Shown: positions 1,458 through 27,960 of the stretch, in pieces
How positions within the stretch are numbered: position 1 is the first letter of the stretch
Layout of the letters: each line of letters begins with the position of its first letter
Virus genome (UHGV): UHGV-0119633
Length of the DNA stretch: 28,006 nucleotides
Direction: 5' to 3' (one strand)
DNA from: a virus
The notes under the pieces: generated by a model
What the model was told of the DNA's origin: nothing
Database searches by the model: none
The model's input: only the letters and a program-made list of their open reading frames with translations
Translations under genes and position numbers: made by a program

Positions 1458-1486
1458 AAATATACCCCTTTCTTTAAATAAACTAT

Positions 1487-1518
1487 TTTTCTATAAAGGG
1501 AGATGTTTATTTAGCGAG
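1487..1518 (-). promoter_or_regulatory. conserved intergenic motif, copy B
   Basis: Minus-strand CTCGCTAAATAAACATCTCCCTTTATAGAAAA; ~30 nt upstream of start of 960-1457. Confidence 0.3.
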
Positions 1519-1944
1519 TTAATCCATGTTCACTAATTCGTGAATTGAACATTTCAATGCTCTCGCCATTTTTATCAGATTACGAGAATTCGGAGTGGCT
1601 AGACCGTTTGTGTATTTACTTATCGTAACCTGAGTGACACCTATCTTTTCAGCTAATCGATCTTGTGTCATAGCTACGTTTCTCATTTTCCGATTTAGAT
1701 TACGAGCAAATATCTTTCTCCATTCTTCTTCTGAAATGTCAATTGAATCTTCGTTGCCTGGATCATGAATCAGATAGGCTTGTCTATTAAGAAAATCATA
1801 AGCATACTTTTTACCGCCTTTGATCTTTACCGTGATCTCTAATTGTGCACTAGGATACCAATCTAACATTTCTTCCGCTAGATTAGGATAATCCTGACAA
1901 AATGCTTCATATACGGGTTTCCAATATTTTTTACCGTCATTCAT
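1519..1944 (-). CDS. XRE-family helix-turn-helix DNA-binding protein
   Basis: C-terminal RNVAMTQDRLAEKIGVTQVTISKYTNG...LIKMARALKCSIHEL is a classic Cro/C1-type HTH; start moved to internal ATG (1942-1944, MNDGKK) which has GGAGGGA RBS at 6 nt; track ORF extends to 1959. Confidence 0.7.
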   Translation of the reverse strand: MNDGKKYWKPVYEAFCQDYPNLAEEMLDWYPSAQLEITVKIKGGKKYAYDFLNRQAYLIHDPGNEDSIDISEEEWRKIFARNLNRKMRNVAMTQDRLAEKIGVTQVTISKYTNGLATPNSRNLIKMARALKCSIHELVNMD

Positions 1945-2060
1945 CTTAAGTCCCTCCATTTCTTAAAGATTGAATTATGTGCAGACCGAAATTCATTTTT
2001 ACCGTTTTTAGGGCCAAAATGACCGAAAATAGCCAATTTAGCCCCATTTTTGACGAAAAG

Positions 2061-2112
2061 TGCCGAATTATTAGCAGACCAAAAATAATTATTAGCAGAC
2101 CAAAATTCGGCA
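2061..2112. repeat. operator-like element: tandem 21-bp direct repeats flanked by 9-bp inverted repeat
   Basis: AATTATTAGCAGACCAAAA at 2066-2084 and 2087-2105 (period 21) bracketed by TGCCGAATT / AATTCGGCA; related GCAGACCGAAA and TGACCGAAAA copies at 1982-2035. Confidence 0.5.
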
Positions 2113-2116
2113 TATC

Positions 2117-2401
2117 TTACACATAATCGTCCTCATCTATGTCGTCTTCATACTCAAATTCATCATTATAATCGTCACTACCAGATCCATATAACTCTTT
2201 TAAAGCTTCTTGACGTTTGTTAATACTATCGATAGATGCTTTATATGTACTGATTCTGATAAACTCCGACATAGACATTCCGCTAAGTCTAGCTGCCCTC
2301 TCTATAGACGAATACTCCTCGTCATTGCATTTAGAGAAAATAGGTTTTCTTCTCGCTCCAAACTTCAACGGCCTCCCACGTTTCTTTTTAACTTCTTCCA
2401 T
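2117..2401 (-). CDS. small basic/AT-hook (KKRGRP) protein with RHH-like core and acidic tail
   Basis: ORF track 94 aa; RBS GAGGAGGA; motif GMSMSEFIRIS resembles ribbon-helix-helix family; paralogous to 3643-3813 and 6290-6493. Confidence 0.55.
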   Translation of the reverse strand: MEEVKKKRGRPLKFGARRKPIFSKCNDEEYSSIERAARLSGMSMSEFIRISTYKASIDSINKRQEALKELYGSGSDDYNDEFEYEDDIDEDDYV

Positions 2402-2407
2402 AAAATA

Positions 2408-2569
2408 TCAATCCTCCTCGCGAGCACTAGACGAACCATAACGATCTAATTCAATATCTACACCCTGCAAATTATCATAATTATGTATGGTAAGATCTGT
2501 CGATACCGTACCACCAAGCAATAAATCACCGATATCCTCAATACTAAGTTTTACAATAATTCTACTCAT
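2408..2569 (-). CDS. hypothetical small protein (53 aa, MSRIIVKLSIEDIGDLLGG...)
   Basis: Hand-translated; ATG 2567-2569 preceded by AAGGAGGA; stop TGA lies inside RBS of next gene. Confidence 0.4.
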   Translation of the reverse strand: MSRIIVKLSIEDIGDLLLGGTVSTDLTIHNYDNLQGVDIELDRYGSSSAREED

Positions 2570-2584
2570 AAATATCAATCCTCC

Positions 2585-2959
2585 TTACCACTCATCAAAC
2601 TCATGATAATCTTCGTCCTTGCAGCCACCCTTAGCCCACAACAACACCTGTATCAGACGGTCAATATCATACTCTTCAAATATCAAGAATTGTTTGTAAC
2701 CAAGGTAGTCATTAGTATCGCCATCATAAATCTCAAATGTCGCCTTAACAGATTCCTCATCGAACACGCTATCCAGATTCCACGGTTCCAACGGCATAAC
2801 CCCATTAAAAACCCAATCGAAAATATAAAACATAGGATTTAATTCTCTACCATGATCGACCTTAATCGCTAATCTCTCTTCCAAAACACACGGAGTATAC
2901 GGAGCAAATATAGTACCAGCTGGCATACGATTAAATGTTTTAAAATCTACTATCTTCAT
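2585..2959 (-). CDS. hypothetical protein (124 aa)
   Basis: ORF track; RBS AAGGAGGAA upstream. Confidence 0.6.
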   Translation of the reverse strand: MKIVDFKTFNRMPAGTIFAPYTPCVLEERLAIKVDHGRELNPMFYIFDWVFNGVMPLEPWNLDSVFDEESVKATFEIYDGDTNDYLGYKQFLIFEEYDIDRLIQVLLWAKGGCKDEDYHEFDEW

Positions 2960-2962
2960 AAT

Positions 2963-3346
2963 TTATTCCTCCTTATCTTTTTCACACCACATTCCAACAA
3001 GATCACTATACACTTCTAGCATTTTTACATCTGGTTTATCGTGGGTTTTATTATATTCATCAAAATATTCATTGAATGCACAAATACACTTCCAAATATA
3101 CATTTGTTTAGAATCATTTGTTTCATCCATTTCAGGTCTTTTTGCTTCCTCCTTGACATTCACTTTAGCCCAAGCGAAATAATGCTCCATATGCTCTCCA
3201 GGACCAAAGCCAACACAACGCGTGCTAACTGATAACGTAACATCATCGGGTTTTACTTTGTAACCGTTTCGACAACAATAGTCTGCTATAATCTCACAGA
3301 CATCATCTTCTGATAAATTAATAGTAATGTTCTTATTAATATTCAT
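2963..3346 (-). CDS. hypothetical protein (127 aa)
   Basis: ORF track; RBS AAGGAGGA overlapping stop of upstream gene. Confidence 0.6.
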   Translation of the reverse strand: MNINKNITINLSEDDVCEIIADYCCRNGYKVKPDDVTLSVSTRCVGFGPGEHMEHYFAWAKVNVKEEAKRPEMDETNDSKQMYIWKCICAFNEYFDEYNKTHDKPDVKMLEVYSDLVGMWCEKDKEE

Positions 3347-3360
3347 AACTCTAATCCTCC

Positions 3361-3621
3361 TTATCTCACATCAACGTTGCATCCAAAATTAATCAGATAA
3401 TCGGTAGTACAACCCAACACATGAGACATTCTAGCGATAACATCTATTCTAGGGGTACGTTTACATCTCATATAATTAGACATAGCCGACTCAGATATAC
3501 CGATTAATTTAGCCAATTCTTTTTGATTAATGCCGCATAAGTCCATACGGTAATTAAGCTTTTCAACGAAGCGTTTTCGCCATTCAATTTCACTAATAGA
3601 TTTTATAGGAGTCATTTCCAT
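3361..3621 (-). CDS. XRE-family helix-turn-helix DNA-binding protein
   Basis: INQKELAKLIGISESAMSNYMRCKRTPRIDVIARMSHVLGCTTDYL = Cro/C1-type HTH; RBS AAGGAGGA. Confidence 0.7.
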   Translation of the reverse strand: MEMTPIKSISEIEWRKRFVEKLNYRMDLCGINQKELAKLIGISESAMSNYMRCKRTPRIDVIARMSHVLGCTTDYLINFGCNVDVR

Positions 3622-3642
3622 AAAAATATCAATCCTCCTTAC

Positions 3643-3813
3643 TTACTTCTCTTCTTGGTACATTCTCTCTAAAGCAGTTCTAAATACATCAGCAGCACTC
3701 ATACCTGTTGACTTACGAACCTTCTCTAAAATATCTAATTCTTTCCTATTAACACGAACTAGATATCTTGTATCTCTAGGATCTGCTATCGGTTTTCTAC
3801 CTCTCTTCGCCAT
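3643..3813 (-). CDS. small basic/AT-hook RHH-like protein (56 aa, MAKRGRKPIADPRDTRYLVRVNRKELDILEKVRKSTGMSAADVFRTALERMYQEEK)
   Basis: Hand-translated; below ORF-track size cutoff; RBS AAGGGAGG 8 nt upstream; clear paralog of 6290-6493 (RGRP..DPR..Y..R.N..E...LE...K.TGM..ADVFR.ALE..Y). Confidence 0.55.
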   Translation of the reverse strand: MAKRGRKPIADPRDTRYLVRVNRKELDILEKVRKSTGMSAADVFRTALERMYQEEK

Positions 3814-3910
3814 ACATATCGCCTCCCTTCTATGACAGATACCATTAATACGAAAAACAAAAGAAGAGCCTCAACTAAATATCAATCTAGTCAAAGCTCT
3901 CCCACATCAA

Positions 3911-3982
3911 TTAATCTTTAAGATAACCAACTTTATATAAGAATCTTCCTACAACTGCCCAAAACTTCTGTCTGAGTGTCAT
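3911..3982 (-). CDS. possible 23-aa peptide (MTLRQKFWAVVGRFLYKVGYLKD)
   Basis: Strong RBS AAAGGAGGGA 6 nt upstream of ATG, ~30 nt downstream of promoter-like motif D; very short. Confidence 0.2.
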   Translation of the reverse strand: MTLRQKFWAVVGRFLYKVGYLKD

Positions 3983-4007
3983 ATAGATCCCTCCTTTCTA
4001 TTTGGTT

Positions 4008-4040
4008 TCTTTTCATAATAGGCGTTGTTAATATCACGAA
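4008..4040 (-). promoter_or_regulatory. conserved intergenic motif, copy D
   Basis: Minus-strand TTCGTGATATTAACAACGCCTATTATGAAAAG. Confidence 0.3.
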
Positions 4041-4063
4041 AGAAAAAGAGAGAAGAAGTATAT

Positions 4064-4205
4064 CTCAGCTACACGTTTCTCTGCATCCATTTAAAGACAC
4101 ATTCACTGGTCAGTTCCAGTCCCACTAATATACTTTGATGCTACACGTTTCTCCATACATAAGTATGTTCACTGGTCAGTTCCAGTCCCACATCAACTTT
4201 TATTC
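4064..4205. repeat. tandem ~70-bp direct repeat (2 copies) with internal hairpin
   Basis: Both copies share CTACACGTTTCTC and TTCACTGGTCAGTTCCAGTCCCAC (ACTGG/CCAGT stem); located between promoter-like motifs E and D. Confidence 0.55.
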
Positions 4206-4238
4206 TTCTCTCATAATATAAAATGTATTTTTCGCGAA
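4206..4238 (-). promoter_or_regulatory. conserved intergenic motif, copy E
   Basis: Minus-strand TTCGCGAAAAATACATTTTATATTATGAGAGA; directly after terminator 4237-4264. Confidence 0.35.
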
Positions 4239-4264
4239 TAAAAAGAAGAGGCTGTAAAAGCCCC
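4237..4264 (-). terminator. rho-independent terminator (short stem)
   Basis: GGGGC-UUUUACA-GCCUC then UUCUUUUUAUU on minus RNA; after stop of 4274-4657. Confidence 0.4.
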
Positions 4265-4273
4265 TTACTTGTT

Positions 4274-6105: not shown

Positions 6106-6306
6106 TCATTCCTCCTTACTTCTTCTAACTTCCATTTCTAACCCAGATTGTATCCAACATCTTCTACATTTACTCTCATCATAGCCAGTAACACCACAGT
6201 TACAGCGCTCAGATGATTGTAAATCATAATCGTATGGACAATTAAACTCGACTAATAAATCGAGCATCGTTTCTTTCTGATTTTCATTATCAAATATCAT
6301 TTTCAT
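6106..6306 (-). CDS. small Cys-rich protein (66 aa)
   Basis: ORF track; RBS GAGGTG; CPYDYD...CNCG...CRRC cysteine pattern. Confidence 0.5.
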   Translation of the reverse strand: MKMIFDNENQKETMLDLLVEFNCPYDYDLQSSERCNCGVTGYDESKCRRCWIQSGLEMEVRRSKEE

Positions 6307-6493
6307 CGTTTAACACACCTCGCTCCGATTCCTTCTCATATAACTTCTCCAAAGCCACTCTAAAAACATCGGCCTGTCCCATACCAGTCATCTTGCAGCA
6401 ATCCTCTAGCATTTTATTTTCTTTATCATTTATACGTATCATGTAATGTTTCTTCCTCGGGTCTTTACTATAAGGTCTCCCTCGTCTGCCCAT
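6290..6493 (-). CDS. small basic/AT-hook RHH-like protein (paralog of 3643-3813)
   Basis: ORF track 67 aa; RBS GGAGGTGA 6 nt upstream; MGRRGRPYSKDPRKKHYMIRIN...TGMGQADVFRVALEKLY. Confidence 0.55.
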   Translation of the reverse strand: MGRRGRPYSKDPRKKHYMIRINDKENKMLEDCCKMTGMGQADVFRVALEKLYEKESERGVLNDENDI

Positions 6494-6532
6494 CGGTAAT
6501 CACCTCCAATCAAATATGCTTAACTTTAAATG

Positions 6533-6564
6533 CAAAAAGAGAAGACCCACATCCGAGCCTTCTC
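6533..6564 (-). terminator. possible terminator (long loop)
   Basis: GAGAAG/CUUCUC stem with 14-nt loop, then UUUUUG; after stop of 6573-6782. Confidence 0.3.
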
Positions 6565-6572
6565 CCATCAAT

Positions 6573-6782
6573 TTAACTATTATGTATTTTACCAGCGATA
6601 GCGTGTAGCAGATCCCTCTCATACTGTGTACGAAGCAGCACGATTTTCTCGATAGCTAAATCACGAACTGCCTTTCTAGTACCAGGACTTTCAACCAAAG
6701 ATTCGATAAATAAATCGTCTAAAATCTCTTCAAGGCCTTTCTTGAAATTCTCATTTCTTTCGGTAACACTGTAATCACTCAT
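6573..6782 (-). CDS. hypothetical protein (69 aa)
   Basis: ORF track; no good SD at normal spacing, so lower confidence. Confidence 0.45.
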   Translation of the reverse strand: MSDYSVTERNENFKKGLEEILDDLFIESLVESPGTRKAVRDLAIEKIVLLRTQYERDLLHAIAGKIHNS

Positions 6783-6837: not shown

Positions 6838-7173
6838 TCAAATATCGCCTTCTTTTCTATGCTGACTCTTCTCACTGTCAAACCCATCAGGATACCTCTC
6901 CATAAGTTTGCATAAGTTAGTCTCCATAATAGTCTGAAGATCATAACCGATAGCTTTAGCACTGATTGCCAAATACCAAGCAACATCTCCAAGCTCTTTT
7001 GCGATATGCTTTCTATCGAGTTCATGACCCTGAAACAAATGCTTCTTGAGAATATCGATACACTCTCCGGCCTCTCCATTAAGACCCATAAGACCATTTT
7101 GAAGCTGCTCCATGTCTGTTAACTCCTGGTTTGCTGATCTCCATGCTCCATCCTGATATGCGTTAATTTCCAT
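6838..7173 (-). CDS. mazG: MazG-like nucleoside triphosphate pyrophosphohydrolase
   Basis: NGEAGECIDILKKHLF...ELGDVAWYLAISAKAIGYDLQTIMETNLCKLMERYP matches the dimeric MazG-like fold signature; RBS AAAGGAGAAAG; overlapping 6792-7097 frame rejected. Confidence 0.75.
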   Translation of the reverse strand: MEINAYQDGAWRSANQELTDMEQLQNGLMGLNGEAGECIDILKKHLFQGHELDRKHIAKELGDVAWYLAISAKAIGYDLQTIMETNLCKLMERYPDGFDSEKSQHRKEGDI

Positions 7174-7272: not shown

Positions 7273-7764
7273 TTAATCGCACCACAACACAATCTGTCCA
7301 AGTTCTCTAGTTCTCTTTACATCTATAACTCTTTGATTTGAGCTTCCTCTCCATTTCAACTGTACATCTCTGAGTTTCTCGACATACGGTCCGTCTACCA
7401 AAACATCAATGTACTCCATAACCGGTAGATCTTTAACCGCTTCATATGTATATCCGGTGTAAAGCCAGATCGTTTTGTTTGGGAAAGATGCTTTTACTAT
7501 TTCGCATAGTGTCAAAATATCCCATCGGTTTCCTTCAAACAACGGATCTCCACCCGATAAAGTCAAACCGGAAATATAATCTTCATCGAGTAGATCTTCG
7601 AGTTCCTCCCAAGCATTTCCATCAAACAACAATCCATCATCAGGGTTCCAAGTAACAGGATTCTGACATCCAGGGCATTCATGATCGCAGCCGGCAACCC
7701 ATAGGACTACACGAAGACCGTCTCCGTTTTTCATATCGTCTTTCGTAATATCATGGTATCTCAT
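7273..7764 (-). CDS. nrdG: anaerobic ribonucleotide reductase activating protein (radical SAM)
   Basis: GCDHECPGC (CxxxCxxC) radical-SAM cluster plus SLSGGDP, IWLYTGY, VLVDGPYV, WRGSSNQ motifs typical of NrdG; RBS GGAGGTGA. Confidence 0.9.
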   Translation of the reverse strand: MRYHDITKDDMKNGDGLRVVLWVAGCDHECPGCQNPVTWNPDDGLLFDGNAWEELEDLLDEDYISGLTLSGGDPLFEGNRWDILTLCEIVKASFPNKTIWLYTGYTYEAVKDLPVMEYIDVLVDGPYVEKLRDVQLKWRGSSNQRVIDVKRTRELGQIVLWCD

Positions 7765-9165: not shown

Positions 9166-9846
9166 TTAATCCTCCTTTTTAGATCCGGTGATAAGTTCTG
9201 AATATGGAAGAGTTTCGATCCATCTACAGAATTCTCTCCACTCATCGAGCTTGTGGTTTTTTCTCTGGTGATACATGGCTGCCAGGACTTCATAATTGAG
9301 CATAACAGTACGTTTCTGGTTATAGCTGCTCGGAAGAAGCTGAATCATCTGCCACCAACAGCCTTTGTCTTTAGATTTTAAATAAGATTCACGGCACCAG
9401 TTTAACTGCTCTATTGTGGTATTAAGAACGGATAATGATGCTTTGCATAAATGTTCACAACTAAAATCCTCCAGCGTAAATTCCTTCGCATGAATCTTGT
9501 GCATAGTTGAGCAAGAGTTAGCAACAGTACCGATTTTATAAGTATCGAACTCCTTCCACCAATACAAAGGCGCTGTAATATCCACATACACAGTAATCAT
9601 CCGCATAAATTTACGATGCTCTGTACCAGCGTTCCGAAGTCTTTTCATAAGGTCGAGGTCGTTTGGCCCGATTATAAAACGGCATGTATTACCGCACCAA
9701 TCCGGTTTGAAACCACACGATTTACAAAGACCAGTATCGCATCCGTTACTACTATCACTCTTCTCCCAACTATTCATCGGATTCCGCATACCTCTAATGG
9801 CAGCTTCCCATCCCATAACTTCTACATTCTCAATTTTAATACTCAT
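9166..9846 (-). CDS. ThyX-like (flavin-dependent thymidylate synthase fold) protein, divergent, with Cys-rich insert
   Basis: By-eye alignment to ThyX: VEVMGWEAAIRGMR / TEHRKFMRMITVYVDITAPLYWW / TVMLNYEVLAAMYHQR resemble ThyX core blocks, but canonical RHR motif appears replaced (DTYK) and a CDTGLCKSCG...CGNTC insert is present; RBS AGGAGGA. Confidence 0.4.
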   Translation of the reverse strand: MSIKIENVEVMGWEAAIRGMRNPMNSWEKSDSSNGCDTGLCKSCGFKPDWCGNTCRFIIGPNDLDLMKRLRNAGTEHRKFMRMITVYVDITAPLYWWKEFDTYKIGTVANSCSTMHKIHAKEFTLEDFSCEHLCKASLSVLNTTIEQLNWCRESYLKSKDKGCWWQMIQLLPSSYNQKRTVMLNYEVLAAMYHQRKNHKLDEWREFCRWIETLPYSELITGSKKED

Positions 9847-19343: not shown

Positions 19344-19877
19344 TTAAAACTCAAACGGAATTTGTTCTACATCCCCGCCCTGAACAGTAACGCTCTGCAT
19401 TAGCTGTCCAGTCTCTTCGTCGTAAAATAAATCATCCAAGAAATGATCAATGTCATCTTGAACGTCCTGGTCTGCCATTCTCATAACTTCATAGCCTTCA
19501 AGACCGATATGACGACGGAGTTTCTTCAAAACAGTAGCAGTCCATCTTCTGAATTTACGAGCTTCAAGTTTCTTACTAGAATATAAAGCTTCATATATAC
19601 CGATCTCATTTACCGCCAACATCCAACGGTATCTATTTTCCCCTTTTGATCTATCCACCTTTGAAAGGTGATCAGATGATTCGTTATACCTTAAAGGTAT
19701 ATCAGATACGTCTACTCTAACTCTCATCATCATATCCGGATCTAATCTCTGAGATACTTTGAATGTTTTAAGTTCCAAAGCATTACAAATATCTTTCAGG
19801 ATAGCCCACCATTCACCATCCTGCTCGATAAATCTAATATCATATCCCATCCAATTCTCTGTTCTCATTTCGCTCAT
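19344..19877 (-). CDS. Bro-N-like domain protein (anti-repressor-type N-terminal domain)
   Basis: MGYDIRFIEQDGEWWAILKDICNALEL resembles Bro-N/KilA-N pattern; start moved to ATG 19875-19877 with AAAGGAGAA RBS. Confidence 0.5.
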   Translation of the reverse strand: MSEMRTENWMGYDIRFIEQDGEWWAILKDICNALELKTFKVSQRLDPDMMMRVRVDVSDIPLRYNESSDHLSKVDRSKGENRYRWMLAVNEIGIYEALYSSKKLEARKFRRWTATVLKKLRRHIGLEGYEVMRMADQDVQDDIDHFLDDLFYDEETGQLMQSVTVQGGDVEQIPFEF

Positions 19878-19891
19878 ATTATTCTCCTTTC

Positions 19892-20029
19892 CTACCAAAA
19901 CTTCACGTTACGAATCTTTCCACAGATCTTACACCGACATCTAAATATGCCTACTTTAAAACCGCAGTAGTCGTAATAAATATCATGCGGTTTGTCTTCG
20001 AGTTTTTCCCATTCGTGAATATGAAACAT
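19892..20029 (-). CDS. small Cys-rich protein (45 aa, MFHIHEWEKLEDKPHDIYYDYCGFKVGIFRCRCKICGK...)
   Basis: Hand-translated; RBS AAAGGAGAGG 6 nt upstream. Confidence 0.4.
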   Translation of the reverse strand: MFHIHEWEKLEDKPHDIYYDYCGFKVGIFRCRCKICGKIRNVKFW

Positions 20030-20103: not shown

Positions 20104-21672
20104 CTATTTAGCCAAGCCCCTTTCGTTTAGTGCATCCTCAACTGCGGAATATCGATCTGAGTTAAGTTGCTCTAATAAGCACTCTAGCGGATCGGTGTTA
20201 TTACTAAGCACCATATTGGTAATAATCGGACTAAATCCACTTACTAAAGCAACTCCTAGATCGTTCTCTTTTACTGGGATGGTTCCTGTTCTGCTACAAA
20301 TGTTCCAGAATATCAATCTAGGAAGTTTATAGCCGTACTGAGAGTAACGATCTGATATCGTATTAAACAGTGTTTTACTCGGTCTGATATTGCTCCATCT
20401 TGAACCTCCTTCGCAACTAGCACAGCTATCAAATTCCATATCTGATAAGATAAGTATGTTTTTAGGAATGTCGTTCTGTGACATGTTATTGTTGATTGCT
20501 GTTTTGAGAATAAGTTCAAATACAGCTTCGATGTTTGTGTTAGCCACCTCGTTGTATCTCCTGGCAATTTCGATCTTTTCTCTCAAAGATTCTCCGTTAC
20601 TAAGATCTACTAAACGAGGATTCATGCTGAATGTAATATATTTGTCTCTGAATTCACCAGAACTTCTTTCAGAAAAATATATTGCAAGAGCATTGGCTAC
20701 CTCTAAAGCTGTTACACTTGTTCCGCCGACAGGACAGTCCATACTACCCGATCCGTCCGCAACGCAAATTGTGTTACCGTCTCCGTTTACATAATCGGGA
20801 AGTGCTTTCCACAATTCTTCAAGTGTAATGTCATCTTTACCTTTGAGTTTATTCCCGTACCAAAATTCACCCCGATCAAAGTATTTATGTACAATATCAT
20901 GCGGGAATAGTACACCAGCATTGATTTTCGTCTCGCCTTTCTGCAAACTCGCTAAGTAACTACTTCTCCTTTCCTCATCGTTCTTCATAAACGCATTACC
21001 ATATATAATATTGGCTCTTGATGGAACCGCAGAATAATCAATCTTTGACCATTCTTTCTTACACATACTAACTTCCACAACTTTTAAATATGCACGAAGA
21101 TCCGAAAGCATTTTACGATAGGATTTCTCGTTAATAAATAACTTCTGAATCATAAGACGTGCTAGTCGTTTTGTCTCTTTAGACGAAGTGTTTGCAGACG
21201 GCATCCATTTAGCTAATAAAGAAATAGGCTCTCCTAGAGATCTCTTCCTTATATCACTTGTCAACTGTGTAGATACAATTGATACAACGTAGTCTGAAAC
21301 GTCAGTGTCTAATAAACACCATAAATCATCCCATCTACCGTATTCCGGAACCAACGGAATGATTGCCTTTGATATATCGGCATGTTTTTCGGATAGATAC
21401 TTAAGACAATATCTGAATAATCTTCTTTCTCCGAGACCTTCTCGTACATCTCTGGCATAGAACAACCACTTGATAGCAAGCTGTTTGTTTTCGTAGAATG
21501 TCTTTACAAACTTGTCTACGATTTCTCCCTCGTCCATATTTCGCATGGATGTTACTGAAAAGTTGATGTCAAGAAGTTCTTTACCAGTAGTACGGTAACC
21601 AACTGCTCCATTTTCAGTAAGGCTTGTGTTGAATTCATCATTGATTGTTTCTTTCAGATTGTTCATAAACAT
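20104..21672 (-). CDS. vWA-domain protein with MIDAS motif and TROVE/Ro60-like N-terminal region (DUF2828-like)
   Basis: 522 aa; DGSGSM (DxSxS MIDAS) followed by vWA-like layout; N-terminal GYRTTGKELLD and LAIKWLFYARDVREGLGERR resemble TROVE module; RBS AAAGGAGAAAAACT. Confidence 0.6.
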   Translation of the reverse strand: MFMNNLKETINDEFNTSLTENGAVGYRTTGKELLDINFSVTSMRNMDEGEIVDKFVKTFYENKQLAIKWLFYARDVREGLGERRLFRYCLKYLSEKHADISKAIIPLVPEYGRWDDLWCLLDTDVSDYVVSIVSTQLTSDIRKRSLGEPISLLAKWMPSANTSSKETKRLARLMIQKLFINEKSYRKMLSDLRAYLKVVEVSMCKKEWSKIDYSAVPSRANIIYGNAFMKNDEERRSSYLASLQKGETKINAGVLFPHDIVHKYFDRGEFWYGNKLKGKDDITLEELWKALPDYVNGDGNTICVADGSGSMDCPVGGTSVTALEVANALAIYFSERSSGEFRDKYITFSMNPRLVDLSNGESLREKIEIARRYNEVANTNIEAVFELILKTAINNNMSQNDIPKNILILSDMEFDSCASCEGGSRWSNIRPSKTLFNTISDRYSQYGYKLPRLIFWNICSRTGTIPVKENDLGVALVSGFSPIITNMVLSNNTDPLECLLEQLNSDRYSAVEDALNERGLAK

Positions 21673-26833: not shown

Positions 26834-27286
26834 TCATCTATGCTGATCGCAGCACCCATTATCGTAATCGAATTCTTCTCGATCTAATGCGCAGTAATAG
26901 CCAGATATGTTATCGCAAGTCTCTTCATCATAATAGTCTTCAAAATCACAATGAACACACTCCCCGCAGCAATGTTTTTCTCTAATATCTTCAACATTCG
27001 CATACTCATCATCTCCGGTTAAACGTAATAATTCTTTAATCTCATCGTCTGTTAAATCGAGTTCACCAGAGTTAAGTCTACTTCTCAAATATTCTGAAAA
27101 TACAACATCCGAATTACTTGTATAATCAGAAATGATATCACCTAACTTGTCATAAGCATCCGGTCCTTCTCCATATTCCTCAGCACATTTCTTACTATTC
27201 GGAATATAGTACATACACTGATCTCCGGAAACATCACAATAGTATCTTCCTTCATCCGGATCAAATTTTGCAGCTTTACAAGACAT
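26834..27286 (-). CDS. Cys-rich acidic protein (150 aa)
   Basis: Start at ATG 27284-27286 (MSCKAAKF) with AAAGGAGAAAACT RBS. Confidence 0.5.
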   Translation of the reverse strand: MSCKAAKFDPDEGRYYCDVSGDQCMYYIPNSKKCAEEYGEGPDAYDKLGDIISDYTSNSDVVFSEYLRSRLNSGELDLTDDEIKELLRLTGDDEYANVEDIREKHCCGECVHCDFEDYYDEETCDNISGYYCALDREEFDYDNGCCDQHR

Positions 27287-27305
27287 AGTTTTCTCCTTTC
27301 TACAA

Positions 27306-27590
27306 TTAACAAAATTCAAGTCCATACCAAGTATCATTGATTTTAGTTACTTTTAATTTGTCTTCATAATACTCGTTTTTATAATTATCAATCAGCTTCT
27401 TTTTAGCTTTTGATAAATTTGTAAACCATTCCTTATCATACATATCGTAATCCCATTCCCAACTGTCTGGTTCAGTCGCTGTACCGAAGCTATCAATAAT
27501 AAAGCTATCCTTGCCTAAGAACCCGACAGTATCGACTAAGATACCATCGTCGTAAATACAATATACTTTTCTACCGATTTTAGGTTTCAT
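27306..27590 (-). CDS. hypothetical protein (94 aa)
   Basis: ORF track; RBS AAAGGAGATATAA. Confidence 0.55.
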   Translation of the reverse strand: MKPKIGRKVYCIYDDGILVDTVGFLGKDSFIIDSFGTATEPDSWEWDYDMYDKEWFTNLSKAKKKLIDNYKNEYYEDKLKVTKINDTWYGLEFC

Positions 27591-27960
27591 TTATATCTCC
27601 TTTTAAAACATAATTTGAAATCCAGTTTTCATTTGATAACTTATCTTTATCTTTCCTTTCCTCATATGCCTGTTTTGCTTTTGTAAAAAGGTCTATTTTG
27701 TCTTGTAGATATGAATCATAAAAACAACCATATTTGTTGTAGTCTTCAATAACTGCTTTGCAATATTCAATGAAATTTTTATCTTCTTCATGACCGCCAA
27801 TATTTATAGAACCAGCAAGATAATTACCGCATTCACATTTGTAATGTTTTATAGGTCTACCATAACCACCTCGCATATTATTGATTGTATATTCATCTCT
27901 GTAAATATCGTTACTGCTAATTTCCTCTTTGCTGCATTTTGGACAGTAAAATAGTCTCAT
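27580..27960 (-). CDS. zinc-ribbon protein (126 aa, CPKC...CECG)
   Basis: ORF track; RBS GAGGTGGA. Confidence 0.55.
   Translation of the reverse strand: MRLFYCPKCSKEEISSNDIYRDEYTINNMRGGYGRPIKHYKCECGNYLAGSINIGGHEEDKNFIEYCKAVIEDYNKYGCFYDSYLQDKIDLFTKAKQAYEERKDKDKLSNENWISNYVLKGDINET

Follow-up and report, generated by a model that had tools for sequence, protein, structure and literature searches.

A conserved repeat-bearing control region, possibly an iteron-type replication origin, between a ribbon-helix-helix gene and an XRE-family regulator gene in human-gut phages

We analyzed a stretch of 28,006 nucleotides from the virus genome UHGV-0119633 (hereafter the window), in which every gene lies on the minus strand, and focused on a short array of direct repeats that separates a gene for a small ribbon-helix-helix (RHH) protein, RHH1, from a gene for an XRE-family regulator, XRE1. 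Judged from comparison with fuller assemblies of the same phage and with its relatives, the window shows only a reduced form of these repeats, which belong to an extensive non-coding control region kept across a human-gut phage family. Tentatively, we regard this array region as an iteron-type control region, which is most likely a replication origin and whose last repeat would also gate XRE1. The features of the locus in the window are as follows.

1519-1944, minus strand: XRE1, 141 aa; an alpha2-beta4 domain particular to the family at the N-terminus, and a Cro/C1 helix-turn-helix (HTH) domain at the C-terminus (Pfam HTH_3, E 4.6e-14)
1945-2116, minus strand: non-coding region between RHH1 and XRE1, 172 bp in the window, apparently a collapsed form of a 463-bp element
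1972-1994, minus strand: promoter-proximal repeat, a third and diverged copy, 27 nt ahead of the start codon of XRE1; coding-strand sequence GAATTTCGGTCTGCACATAATTC
1995-2060, minus strand: phased T-tract block, with GGCTATTTTCGGTCATTTTGGCCC on the coding strand (plus strand 2011-2034)
2066-2105, minus strand: two tandem array repeats, TTTTGGTCTGCTAATAAT on the coding strand, period 21 bp
2117-2401, minus strand: RHH1, 94 aa, made up of an RGRP arm (basic, AT-hook-like), an RHH domain, and an acidic/aromatic tail

The repeat array in the window and in full-length assemblies

The exactly repeated string of the array is 19 nt long (AATTATTAGCAGACCAAAA, at 2066-2084 and 2087-2105) and recurs with a period of 21 bp. 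A first-pass annotation of this DNA had described exact 21-bp direct repeats, of which the period stands but not the identity over the full length. Its coordinates for the RHH and XRE genes and for the repeats all hold, and so does the exact 9-bp inverted repeat that flanks the tandem repeats (TGCCGAATT/AATTCGGCA, at 2061-2069 and 2104-2112), while the several extra half-sites that it had placed nearby come down to one more exact GCAGACCGAAA at 1981-1991, the remaining look-alikes being degenerate. The array is the highest-scoring tandem repeat of the window (Tandem Repeats Finder score 80), and its repeat motif is found in the window only at this place: 0.63 copies of GCAGACCRAAA would be expected in 28 kb, and three are present, which all fall in one stretch of 125 bp.

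The contig that holds the window (European Nucleotide Archive (ENA) NODE_478) has a coverage of 2.96x, and the same phage is present as a 96,655-bp IMG/VR contig and an 81,861-bp ENA contig. In these two contigs and in two shorter ones, the gap between RHH1 and XRE1 is 463 bp, compared with 172 bp in the window; the loci of this phage with the 463-bp form are L013 (positions 6286-6748), L009, L015, and L016 (L numbers denote individual loci). The window differs from the longer form by two clean deletions, which lie between internal duplications of 40 bp and 23 bp. The 172-bp form is most simply explained as an assembly collapse at 3x coverage, with a natural deletion as the alternative. Read in the direction of transcription, the 463-bp form opens with seven copies of TTTYGGTCTGCTAATAAW, followed by the conserved T-tract block and one copy of TTTCGGTCTGCACATAAT; then comes an AT-rich core of ~115 bp (85% AT) with a 36-bp near-palindrome, ACTTTATACTTTAGTTATATAACCAAAGTATAAAGT, and beyond this core, just ahead of XRE1, a second, identical copy of TTTCGGTCTGCACATAAT. 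All nine repeat copies (7 + 2) are direct, with start-to-start distances of 21, 32, 24, 32, 42, 21, 93, and 140 bp. The window holds 2 + 1 repeats only, and the AT-rich core is absent from its contig.

Copy number differs even among near-identical genomes. Seven samples share an identical 439-bp region with 8 copies and one 93-kb contig has 6, and the arrays of L024 and L025 differ by two copies, so that the variation among relatives is real. Several low-coverage contigs break within the array or at the AT-rich core. Because low-coverage assemblies collapse or break at this locus, single contigs under-report the array. When the AT-rich core was folded, the inverted repeat (-6 kcal/mol) was the only structure to emerge, and a structured RNA is therefore unlikely there. 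An Rfam search of the full intergenic region gave one sub-threshold chance match to a miRNA, Rfam and tRNA scans of the whole window gave no hit (including none to a Y-RNA-like family), and a terminator scan found none between RHH1 and XRE1.

Conservation across gut-phage lineages

Loci were fetched from ~14 distinct lineages, whose XRE1 proteins are 39-96% identical and whose host contigs belong to gut phages of 82-97 kb. XRE1 has 25 orthologue clusters, all of them metagenomic, and RHH1 only 10. A small gene encoding an RGRP arm and an RHH domain, then 258-638 bp of AT-rich non-coding DNA, then XRE1 is the order in 16 of 18 further IMG/VR loci, and the same gene order is seen in every metagenome relative whose contig extends upstream of XRE1. 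The view that a protein-binding-type repeat array lies between an RHH and an XRE gene was borne out, and the arrangement of RHH1, array, and XRE1 is kept in related phages, in at least 14 lineages. A 2.6-kb nucleotide search against cultured and deposited phages gave no match, nor did tblastn with RHH1.

The inner layout is kept as well. An array of 2-12 direct repeats is followed by the T-tract block and a single repeat; the AT-rich stretch, which includes an inverted repeat, comes next, and a last repeat closes the region. Relatives have 3-13 copies. The repeats are 18-21 bp long, direct, and on one face of the helix, and in every lineage examined the final one sits 20-45 nt before the ribosome-binding site of XRE1. 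A 100-bp stretch of 77-90% AT is present in every lineage, and the richest 100 bp lie 113-182 bp before XRE1 in all lineages but L305. Each of the seven aligned lineages retains the inverted-repeat arms ACTTTNAAC ... GTTNAAAGT, which are 18-26 nt apart, and the phage of the window shows one compensatory double change in them. The T-tract block has invariant columns across eight relatives that carry differing repeat types.

Analogous elements were observed in two further places. In the cultured relative FP_oengus (L272 7287-7470; NC_047916 ~26,895-27,100), the same relative position is occupied by an AT-rich stretch with two copies of TTTGGCCAAAAACCCACTT, which contains TGGCCA, and in L316 (1140-1460) seven TGGCCA sites surround an AT-rich stretch and the palindrome AGTTTAGTTATATAACTAAAGT. 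Neither has an RGRP/RHH gene upstream, which fits an older core to which the RHH cassette was added later. A TGGCC-like remnant is seen in the T-tract block of several RHH-bearing lineages. Close to its element, FP_oengus also has an unannotated open reading frame (ORF) of 124 codons (L272 7609-7983; NC_047916 ~27,217-27,591; MNYMDALAKNWREHDY...) with CxxC...CxxC motifs, in the 870-bp gap between gp52 and gp53.

The repeats follow the RHH variant

As read from the compared loci, repeat sequences vary from lineage to lineage, in step with the RHH variant and not with XRE1. L307 and L308 encode near-identical XRE1 proteins, including the recognition helix, but their RHH proteins are 65 and 71 aa long and their repeats read TTTTTGTGTTAC and TTTATTGTACG, respectively. 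Likewise, XRE1 is near-identical in L303 and L317, whereas the RHH strand is RQLNVRV in the former and RRIDIRV in the latter, with repeats of TGTATAGCA and TGTACGGCA. The converse is found in L306 and L308, in which related RHH proteins accompany related repeats (TGTAC in both) although the XRE1 proteins are quite unlike. The XRE1 recognition helix is almost the same in L026 and L028, the repeats of which are unlike; it is unlike in L024 and L029, which have repeats in common (GGGCTGGAC) and in both of which the RHH protein has 72 aa. An RHH strand of IVFSC goes with GGTATGC repeats in L028, and one of IFSKC with GGTCTGC in the phage of the window. In an alignment of 22 members, the most variable segment of the RHH protein is the stretch after the RGRP arm, the site of the DNA-reading beta-strand. 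Because the repeats follow the RHH variant while XRE1 stays near-identical, RHH1 is likely the protein that binds them; the co-variation gives strong circumstantial support for such binding, short of proof.

Protein families and the paired genes

Two paralogues of RHH1 and one of XRE1 lie elsewhere in the window.

3361-3621, minus strand: XRE2, 86-aa Cro/C1 HTH protein, paralogue of the C-terminal half of XRE1 (Pfam HTH_3, E 1.7e-10)
3643-3813, minus strand: RHH2, 56-aa RGRP/RHH paralogue (phrog_876), which opens the gene block closed by RHH1
6290-6493, minus strand: RHH3, 67-aa RGRP/RHH paralogue (phrog_876)
6566-6537: terminator-like hairpin immediately upstream of RHH3

By profile comparison, RHH1, RHH2, and RHH3 are members of the ribbon-helix-helix family. 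RHH1 matches the Pfam NikA-like family with 35.3 bits (cut-off 27). RHH2 and RHH3 stay under the Pfam cut-offs; besides their phrog match, they align with the RHH1 family in hhalign (97.6%, E 3.9e-12), and this profile-profile comparison confirms the proposed third paralogue at 6290-6493 as homologous. The N-terminal K/R-RGRP arm is near-invariant in the 22 family members. Among solved RHH proteins, the RHH1 family profile matches the TacA/KacA antitoxins (E 7e-6), ParD, ParG, CopG, and Arc, and solved NikA very weakly (E 0.24); weak Pfam matches to TacA1 and YdaS were also seen. XRE1 and XRE2 are Cro/C1 HTH regulators as judged by their HTH_3 domains. The fold of XRE1 is nearest to controller proteins and phage repressors, and its N-terminal domain gave no match in the fold search and none to a toxin.

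A NikA-type accessory protein of a relaxosome was considered for RHH1 and rejected. RHH1 resembles NikA, MobC, and TraY in its best Pfam family, in its basic N-terminal arm, and in repeats that stand next to an AT-rich inverted repeat. Unlike those proteins at oriT, it belongs to a phage element, and no relaxase/HUH protein turned up in the scans of the window and of the annotated downstream loci, which covered some of the proteins of part of a ~94-kb genome.

The small RHH-like and XRE genes had been read as two duplicated regulator pairs. This does not hold for the second pair, because RHH2 and XRE2 are adjacent in the phage of the window only: in L028, L024, and L029 the genes after the RHH2 orthologue are not HTH genes, and in L027 several other genes lie between the orthologue and an XRE2-like gene. 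A motif found upstream of RHH2 and RHH3, TTGATGTGGGA, is not enriched.

A candidate iteron-type control region

Drawing on analogy with known origins, we consider it possible, and put forward tentatively, that the array region serves as a replication origin of the iteron type or as a region controlling replication. In the full assemblies and the relatives, it has at least three direct repeats of ~17-22 bp in helical phase, and an AT-rich element adjoins them in every lineage. The region is single-copy in the genome parts examined, in which the other cis-acting site, a probable cos end, is ~7.5 kb off. It is also without the family's promoter-like motif described below (best score -0.6 bits, against 17-41 bits at 12 sites). 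In the mechanism that we propose, an RHH1 dimer would sit on each repeat, with its beta-sheet at the GC core (GGTCTGC) and its RGRP arm at the flanking AT tract, and occupancy of all repeats would build a phased nucleoprotein array. The AT-rich core would serve as the unwinding element, and the conserved T-tract block and the inverted repeat would be recognized by conserved machinery. Since lineages exchange the repeats but keep the AT-rich core and the T-tract block, RHH1 and the array may be a type-specific accessory or regulatory part and not necessarily the initiator. The last repeat would couple RHH1 occupancy to XRE1 expression. We are more doubtful of a further step, namely that a swappable cassette of RHH gene and cognate repeats forms the specificity module of a gut-phage replication origin, joined to a conserved AT-rich inverted-repeat core.

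The lambda origin is built of iterons, with repeats that are intrinsically bent, and of an AT-rich tract after them; iteron number is 4 versus 6 in lambda and Stx phages (PMC7466680). The gut-phage element resembles the origins of lambda (ori/O) and of the plasmids P1, R6K, and F in its direct 18-22 bp repeats phased by whole turns, bent T/A tracts, an AT-rich tract alongside, one more repeat at the downstream gene's promoter, a putative specificity protein whose variants go with those of the repeats, and a copy number that varies between relatives. Unlike these origins, it is intergenic and not within an initiator gene, its candidate binder is an RHH protein and not a winged-helix Rep or lambda O, and it has neither DnaA boxes nor a helicase loader nearby; its replication role is predicted. 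Closer in protein type is the RHH antitoxin PrpA, which occupies the iterons of an origin next to an 89% AT element and thereby controls replication, besides repressing a promoter (PMC7848731). The predicted binding of RHH1 would likewise place an RHH protein on iterons next to an AT-rich element. PrpA, however, is partnered by a ParE-type toxin and is a competitor of a known Rep protein; no such toxin or Rep was identified in the gut phage. In omega of pSM19035, in ParR/parC of R1 and pSK41, and in ParG, the array bound by an RHH protein is both operator and centromere. The likeness lies in cooperative binding of a small RHH dimer to many direct repeats by or over a promoter, as predicted here, and ParG is among the profile matches. 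The differences are that the gut-phage repeats are 18-21 bp long at a spacing of 21-42 bp and not head-to-tail units of 7-11 bp, that no partner nucleoside triphosphatase (NTPase) was found in the annotated part, that RHH1 has an RGRP arm and an acidic tail, and that the element is apparently carried by a cos-type phage related to virulent phages. As for XRE1, it differs from C.AhdI and P22 c2 in its additional N-terminal alpha2-beta4 domain without a structural match, and the direct repeats next to it are not palindromic and do not co-vary with it.

A number of points weigh against a replication role or against RHH1 as the repeat binder. No iteron initiator is known to have an RHH fold, and RHH proteins are mainly repressors or accessory factors. 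No recognizable initiator, primase, or polymerase gene adjoins the array region, the sole helicase seen lies 14 kb upstream, and no DnaA boxes were found. The AT-rich core is missing from the window contig and would be dispensable if the window form is a viable phage. Cumulative GC skew is monotonic and does not locate an origin; it is uninformative because all genes are on one strand. With regard to binding, the promoter-proximal repeat of L308 belongs to the other type, and because the RHH gene and the array are adjacent, co-inheritance through physical linkage may contribute to their co-variation.

Alternative explanations

A transcriptional switch is a serious, if somewhat doubtful, possibility; it fits the data almost as well as an origin, and the two are not mutually exclusive. 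RHH1, as the last product of the block from RHH2 to RHH1, would coat the array together with the site on either side of the AT-rich core and thereby set the XRE1 level, either by blocking read-through or by repressing or activating a promoter in the core, and XRE1, with its conserved HTH, would autoregulate through the conserved inverted repeat. By far the most RHH proteins act as repressors, and CopG, Arc, ParD, and TacA are among the matches of the profile; the fold relatives of XRE1 point the same way. The constant position of the final repeat ahead of the XRE1 ribosome-binding site places it over the only sigma-70-like match of the region (TTTTCA-16-CATAAT, 9/12, weak), which overlaps the promoter-proximal repeat. 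No terminator separates RHH1 from XRE1. The stretch from the upstream block to the XRE1 start codon is free of the promoter-like motif, the next copy of which begins directly at the XRE1 stop codon, and XRE1 therefore looks specially controlled. However, 7-13 sites over 200-350 bp with variable copy number go far beyond what known operators need. A 100-bp tract of 85% AT, an inverted repeat with an 18-26 nt spacer, and a T-tract block have no obvious role in repression, and the AT-rich core holds no convincing promoter.

The other readings are unlikely even when taken together. It is improbable that the region is a centromere-like site of the ParR/ParG/omega type in a plasmid-like prophage, or a packaging site or physical end with a nick or telomere at the palindrome. 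Centromeres of types Ib and II are defined by direct-repeat arrays to which RHH dimers bind, and ParG and ParD are among the profile matches, but no gene for ParA, ParM, a TubZ-type protein, or a delta NTPase was seen in ~40 kb annotated in part (the window and the loci). For a physical end speaks that four low-coverage contigs (L016, L017, L010, and L283) stop at most 9 nt from the palindrome center. Yet eight well-covered contigs of one relative, seven of them identical, and contigs of 82-97 kb span the site, contigs of ~94 kb begin at differing positions, and in two samples ~20-70 nt between the flanking contigs are unassembled, which fits a coverage drop-out in AT-rich DNA. Reproducible contig ends lie elsewhere, at a GC-rich site past the RNA polymerase gene that corresponds to the right end in cultured relatives. 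A telomere, cos site, or nick at the palindrome was rejected on account of the spanning contigs and of these reproducible ends, and the array is not a terminus. It is highly improbable, too, that the region is an attP with arm-type repeats and a core inverted repeat. An AT-rich region with direct repeats around an inverted-repeat core would suit one, and two records, L015 and MT835495.1, join phage to bacterial DNA; but no integrase was found in the window or in ~12 kb of annotated downstream loci, repeat copy numbers of 2-12 are unlike arm sites, the junction in L015 cuts a bacterial ORF on a shared stretch of ~14 nt as a chimera would, and MT835495.1 is an unverified scaffold. Equally hard to credit are the duplicated toxin-antitoxin or repressor/antirepressor modules favored by the first-pass annotation. 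Although the top solved-structure matches of the RHH1 profile are the TacA/KacA antitoxins, with the weak Pfam matches to TacA1 and YdaS, there is no toxin domain in or beside either pair, the N-terminal domain of XRE1 included, and RHH1 and XRE1 are split by 172-640 bp of non-coding DNA and are not translationally coupled. The repressor/antirepressor pairing finds no support, the only Ant-like gene being 17 kb away. Neither idea is supported, as no toxin domain is present and the second pair is not conserved.

The two records with bacterial DNA deserve a separate description. In L015 (3795-5059), the AT-rich core is joined to bacterial ribosomal protein genes through a short shared stretch, ~14 nt by manual count. 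The ORF cut at the junction is presumably that of ribosomal protein S3 by our own reading; the annotation tool gave an unannotated 62-aa ORF next to L22 and S19. Because the junction truncates an apparently essential gene on a short shared stretch, L015 is a microhomology chimera. MT835495.1 ('Bacteriophage sp.', 69.8 kb; 66000-69826 is L273) starts inside XRE1 and ends in bacterial ABC-transporter-like genes.

Genome context and the probable genome end

Downstream of XRE1 follow small genes, HNH endonucleases, a 96-aa endonuclease, a DUF2800/Cas4-type exonuclease, a protein of ~1050 aa, and an 85-aa gene. Two of the features lie outside the window and are given in the coordinates of other loci.

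L027 12759-15917: gene for the ~1050-aa polymerase-like protein, ~6 kb downstream of XRE1, with orthologues in L009, L013, L022, L024, L028, and L031
L285 2756-2799, L297 ~2820-2893, and L027 16176-16459: conserved GC-rich site, at which two contigs (L285 and L297) end

The ~1050-aa protein gives a full-length match to phrog_4291 (1144 bits) and has a C-terminal HTH like sigma region 4. We take it to be a YonO-type single-chain two-barrel RNA polymerase, on the strength of its family annotation and not of a direct comparison with YonO. The module of endonuclease, exonuclease, and polymerase is also present in Lactococcus phage 1706, FP_oengus, and many actinophages. In Lactococcus phage 1706, P092, P118, and many actinophages, the polymerase-like gene is the last large gene at the right genome end, with at most one small gene after it. 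In the gut phages, contigs stop reproducibly at a conserved GC-rich site just past the 85-aa gene (...CCCCCTCCTGCA in L285 and ...CCCCCCTTGCAT in L297). This site, ~7.5 kb from the array, is probably a cos site or the right genome end, as in the cultured relatives. Between the GC-rich end and the first late gene, several lineages have an inverted repeat of ~22-27 bp, whose arms are at least ~100 bp apart and whose sequence is lineage-specific. A GGTCTGC match downstream of the RNA polymerase gene of L027 was dismissed as a coincidence, as it is absent from the relatives.

Other genes of the window and its relatives were recorded as side observations. A 522-aa protein of phrog_850 (RNA-binding protein) is encoded at 20104-21672, which is presumably TROVE/Ro-like. 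An RtcB RNA ligase gene lies just upstream of the RHH2 block in relatives (L024 533-1726, L028 390-1586, and L029 905-2098). The window further encodes MazG (6838-7173), a radical-SAM/Fer4_12 protein that is probably an NrdG-type activase (7273-7764), a protein that is ThyX-like by inspection only (9166-9846), and an Ant/Bro-type protein (19344-19898), and these four genes have no link to the array.

A promoter-like motif and the transcription units

A 36-nt motif, (T/C)TCGCGAAA-N3-ACA-N5-CTATTATGAGA, occurs 12 times in the window, on the coding strand only, with scores of 17-41 bits; the best score on the other strand is 7. Its copies and the features of the 460-bp leader upstream of RHH2 are as follows.

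378, 904, 1518, 4040, 4238, 4717, 11585, 12366, 15148, 16171, 18313, and 21918, minus strand: starts of the 36-nt motif, by position weight matrix (PWM)
1483-1518, minus strand: first copy after XRE1, beginning at the base right after the XRE1 stop codon (PWM 28 bits)
4238-4203 and 4040-4005, minus strand: two copies heading the block from RHH2 to RHH1 (PWM 35.7 and 34.8 bits)
3814-4273: leader upstream of RHH2, 460 bp
3911-3982, minus strand: 23-aa ORF with a strong ribosome-binding site, in the leader
3903-3862: terminator-like hairpin of 19 pairs, just upstream of RHH2

The inspected copies lie in intergenic gaps just before gene blocks, several of them directly behind a terminator, and are not sigma-70-like. 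The motif is also found in relatives (L027 3912-11652) and twice in FP_oengus (L272 2930 and 8074), where one copy is just ahead of the endonuclease-exonuclease-polymerase genes. Because FP_oengus, which shares the motif, encodes the same YonO-like RNA polymerase, the motif may be the promoter of this polymerase. The promoter of YonO-type polymerases was not yet established in a 2017 paper (PMC5467207), and for this reason the motif is possibly of greater interest than the array.

Across the locus, the order is the motifs at 4238 and 4040, the small ORF, the hairpin, RHH2, XRE2, three small genes, RHH1, the array, XRE1, and the motif at 1518. The leader contains, flanked by its two motif copies, a tandem duplication of 66-72 bp with exact copies of 24 nt and 14 nt at 4068-4191 (repeat families D4 and D10), and it is 66 bp shorter in L015 than in L016. 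The same arrangement of motif, leader, and hairpin is found ahead of RHH2-type genes in relatives. As the array region has neither the motif nor a terminator, XRE1 would be reached by read-through across the array or from a different promoter.

Significance

Repeats that are cognate to a DNA-binding protein, iteron-like origins, and arrays coated by RHH proteins are each of an already known kind. What is new is an RGRP-armed RHH cassette that is swapped between lineages beside a conserved AT-rich core in uncultured gut phages, for which there is no described counterpart; if the specificity of a phage origin did reside in an RHH protein and were traded among lineages in the manner of immunity regions, this too would not have been described before. 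The phages concerned are abundant, uncultured inhabitants of the human gut with genomes of 82-97 kb, and in the genome parts examined the array region is the one conserved cis-acting region besides the probable genome end. Loci with the same XRE1 but another RHH protein and other repeats form a natural specificity-swap series on which the reading of DNA by RHH/AT-hook proteins can be tested, and the analogous element of the cultured relative FP_oengus makes experiments feasible. If the region is indeed an origin, it would offer a handle on replication, incompatibility, and engineering in these gut phages.

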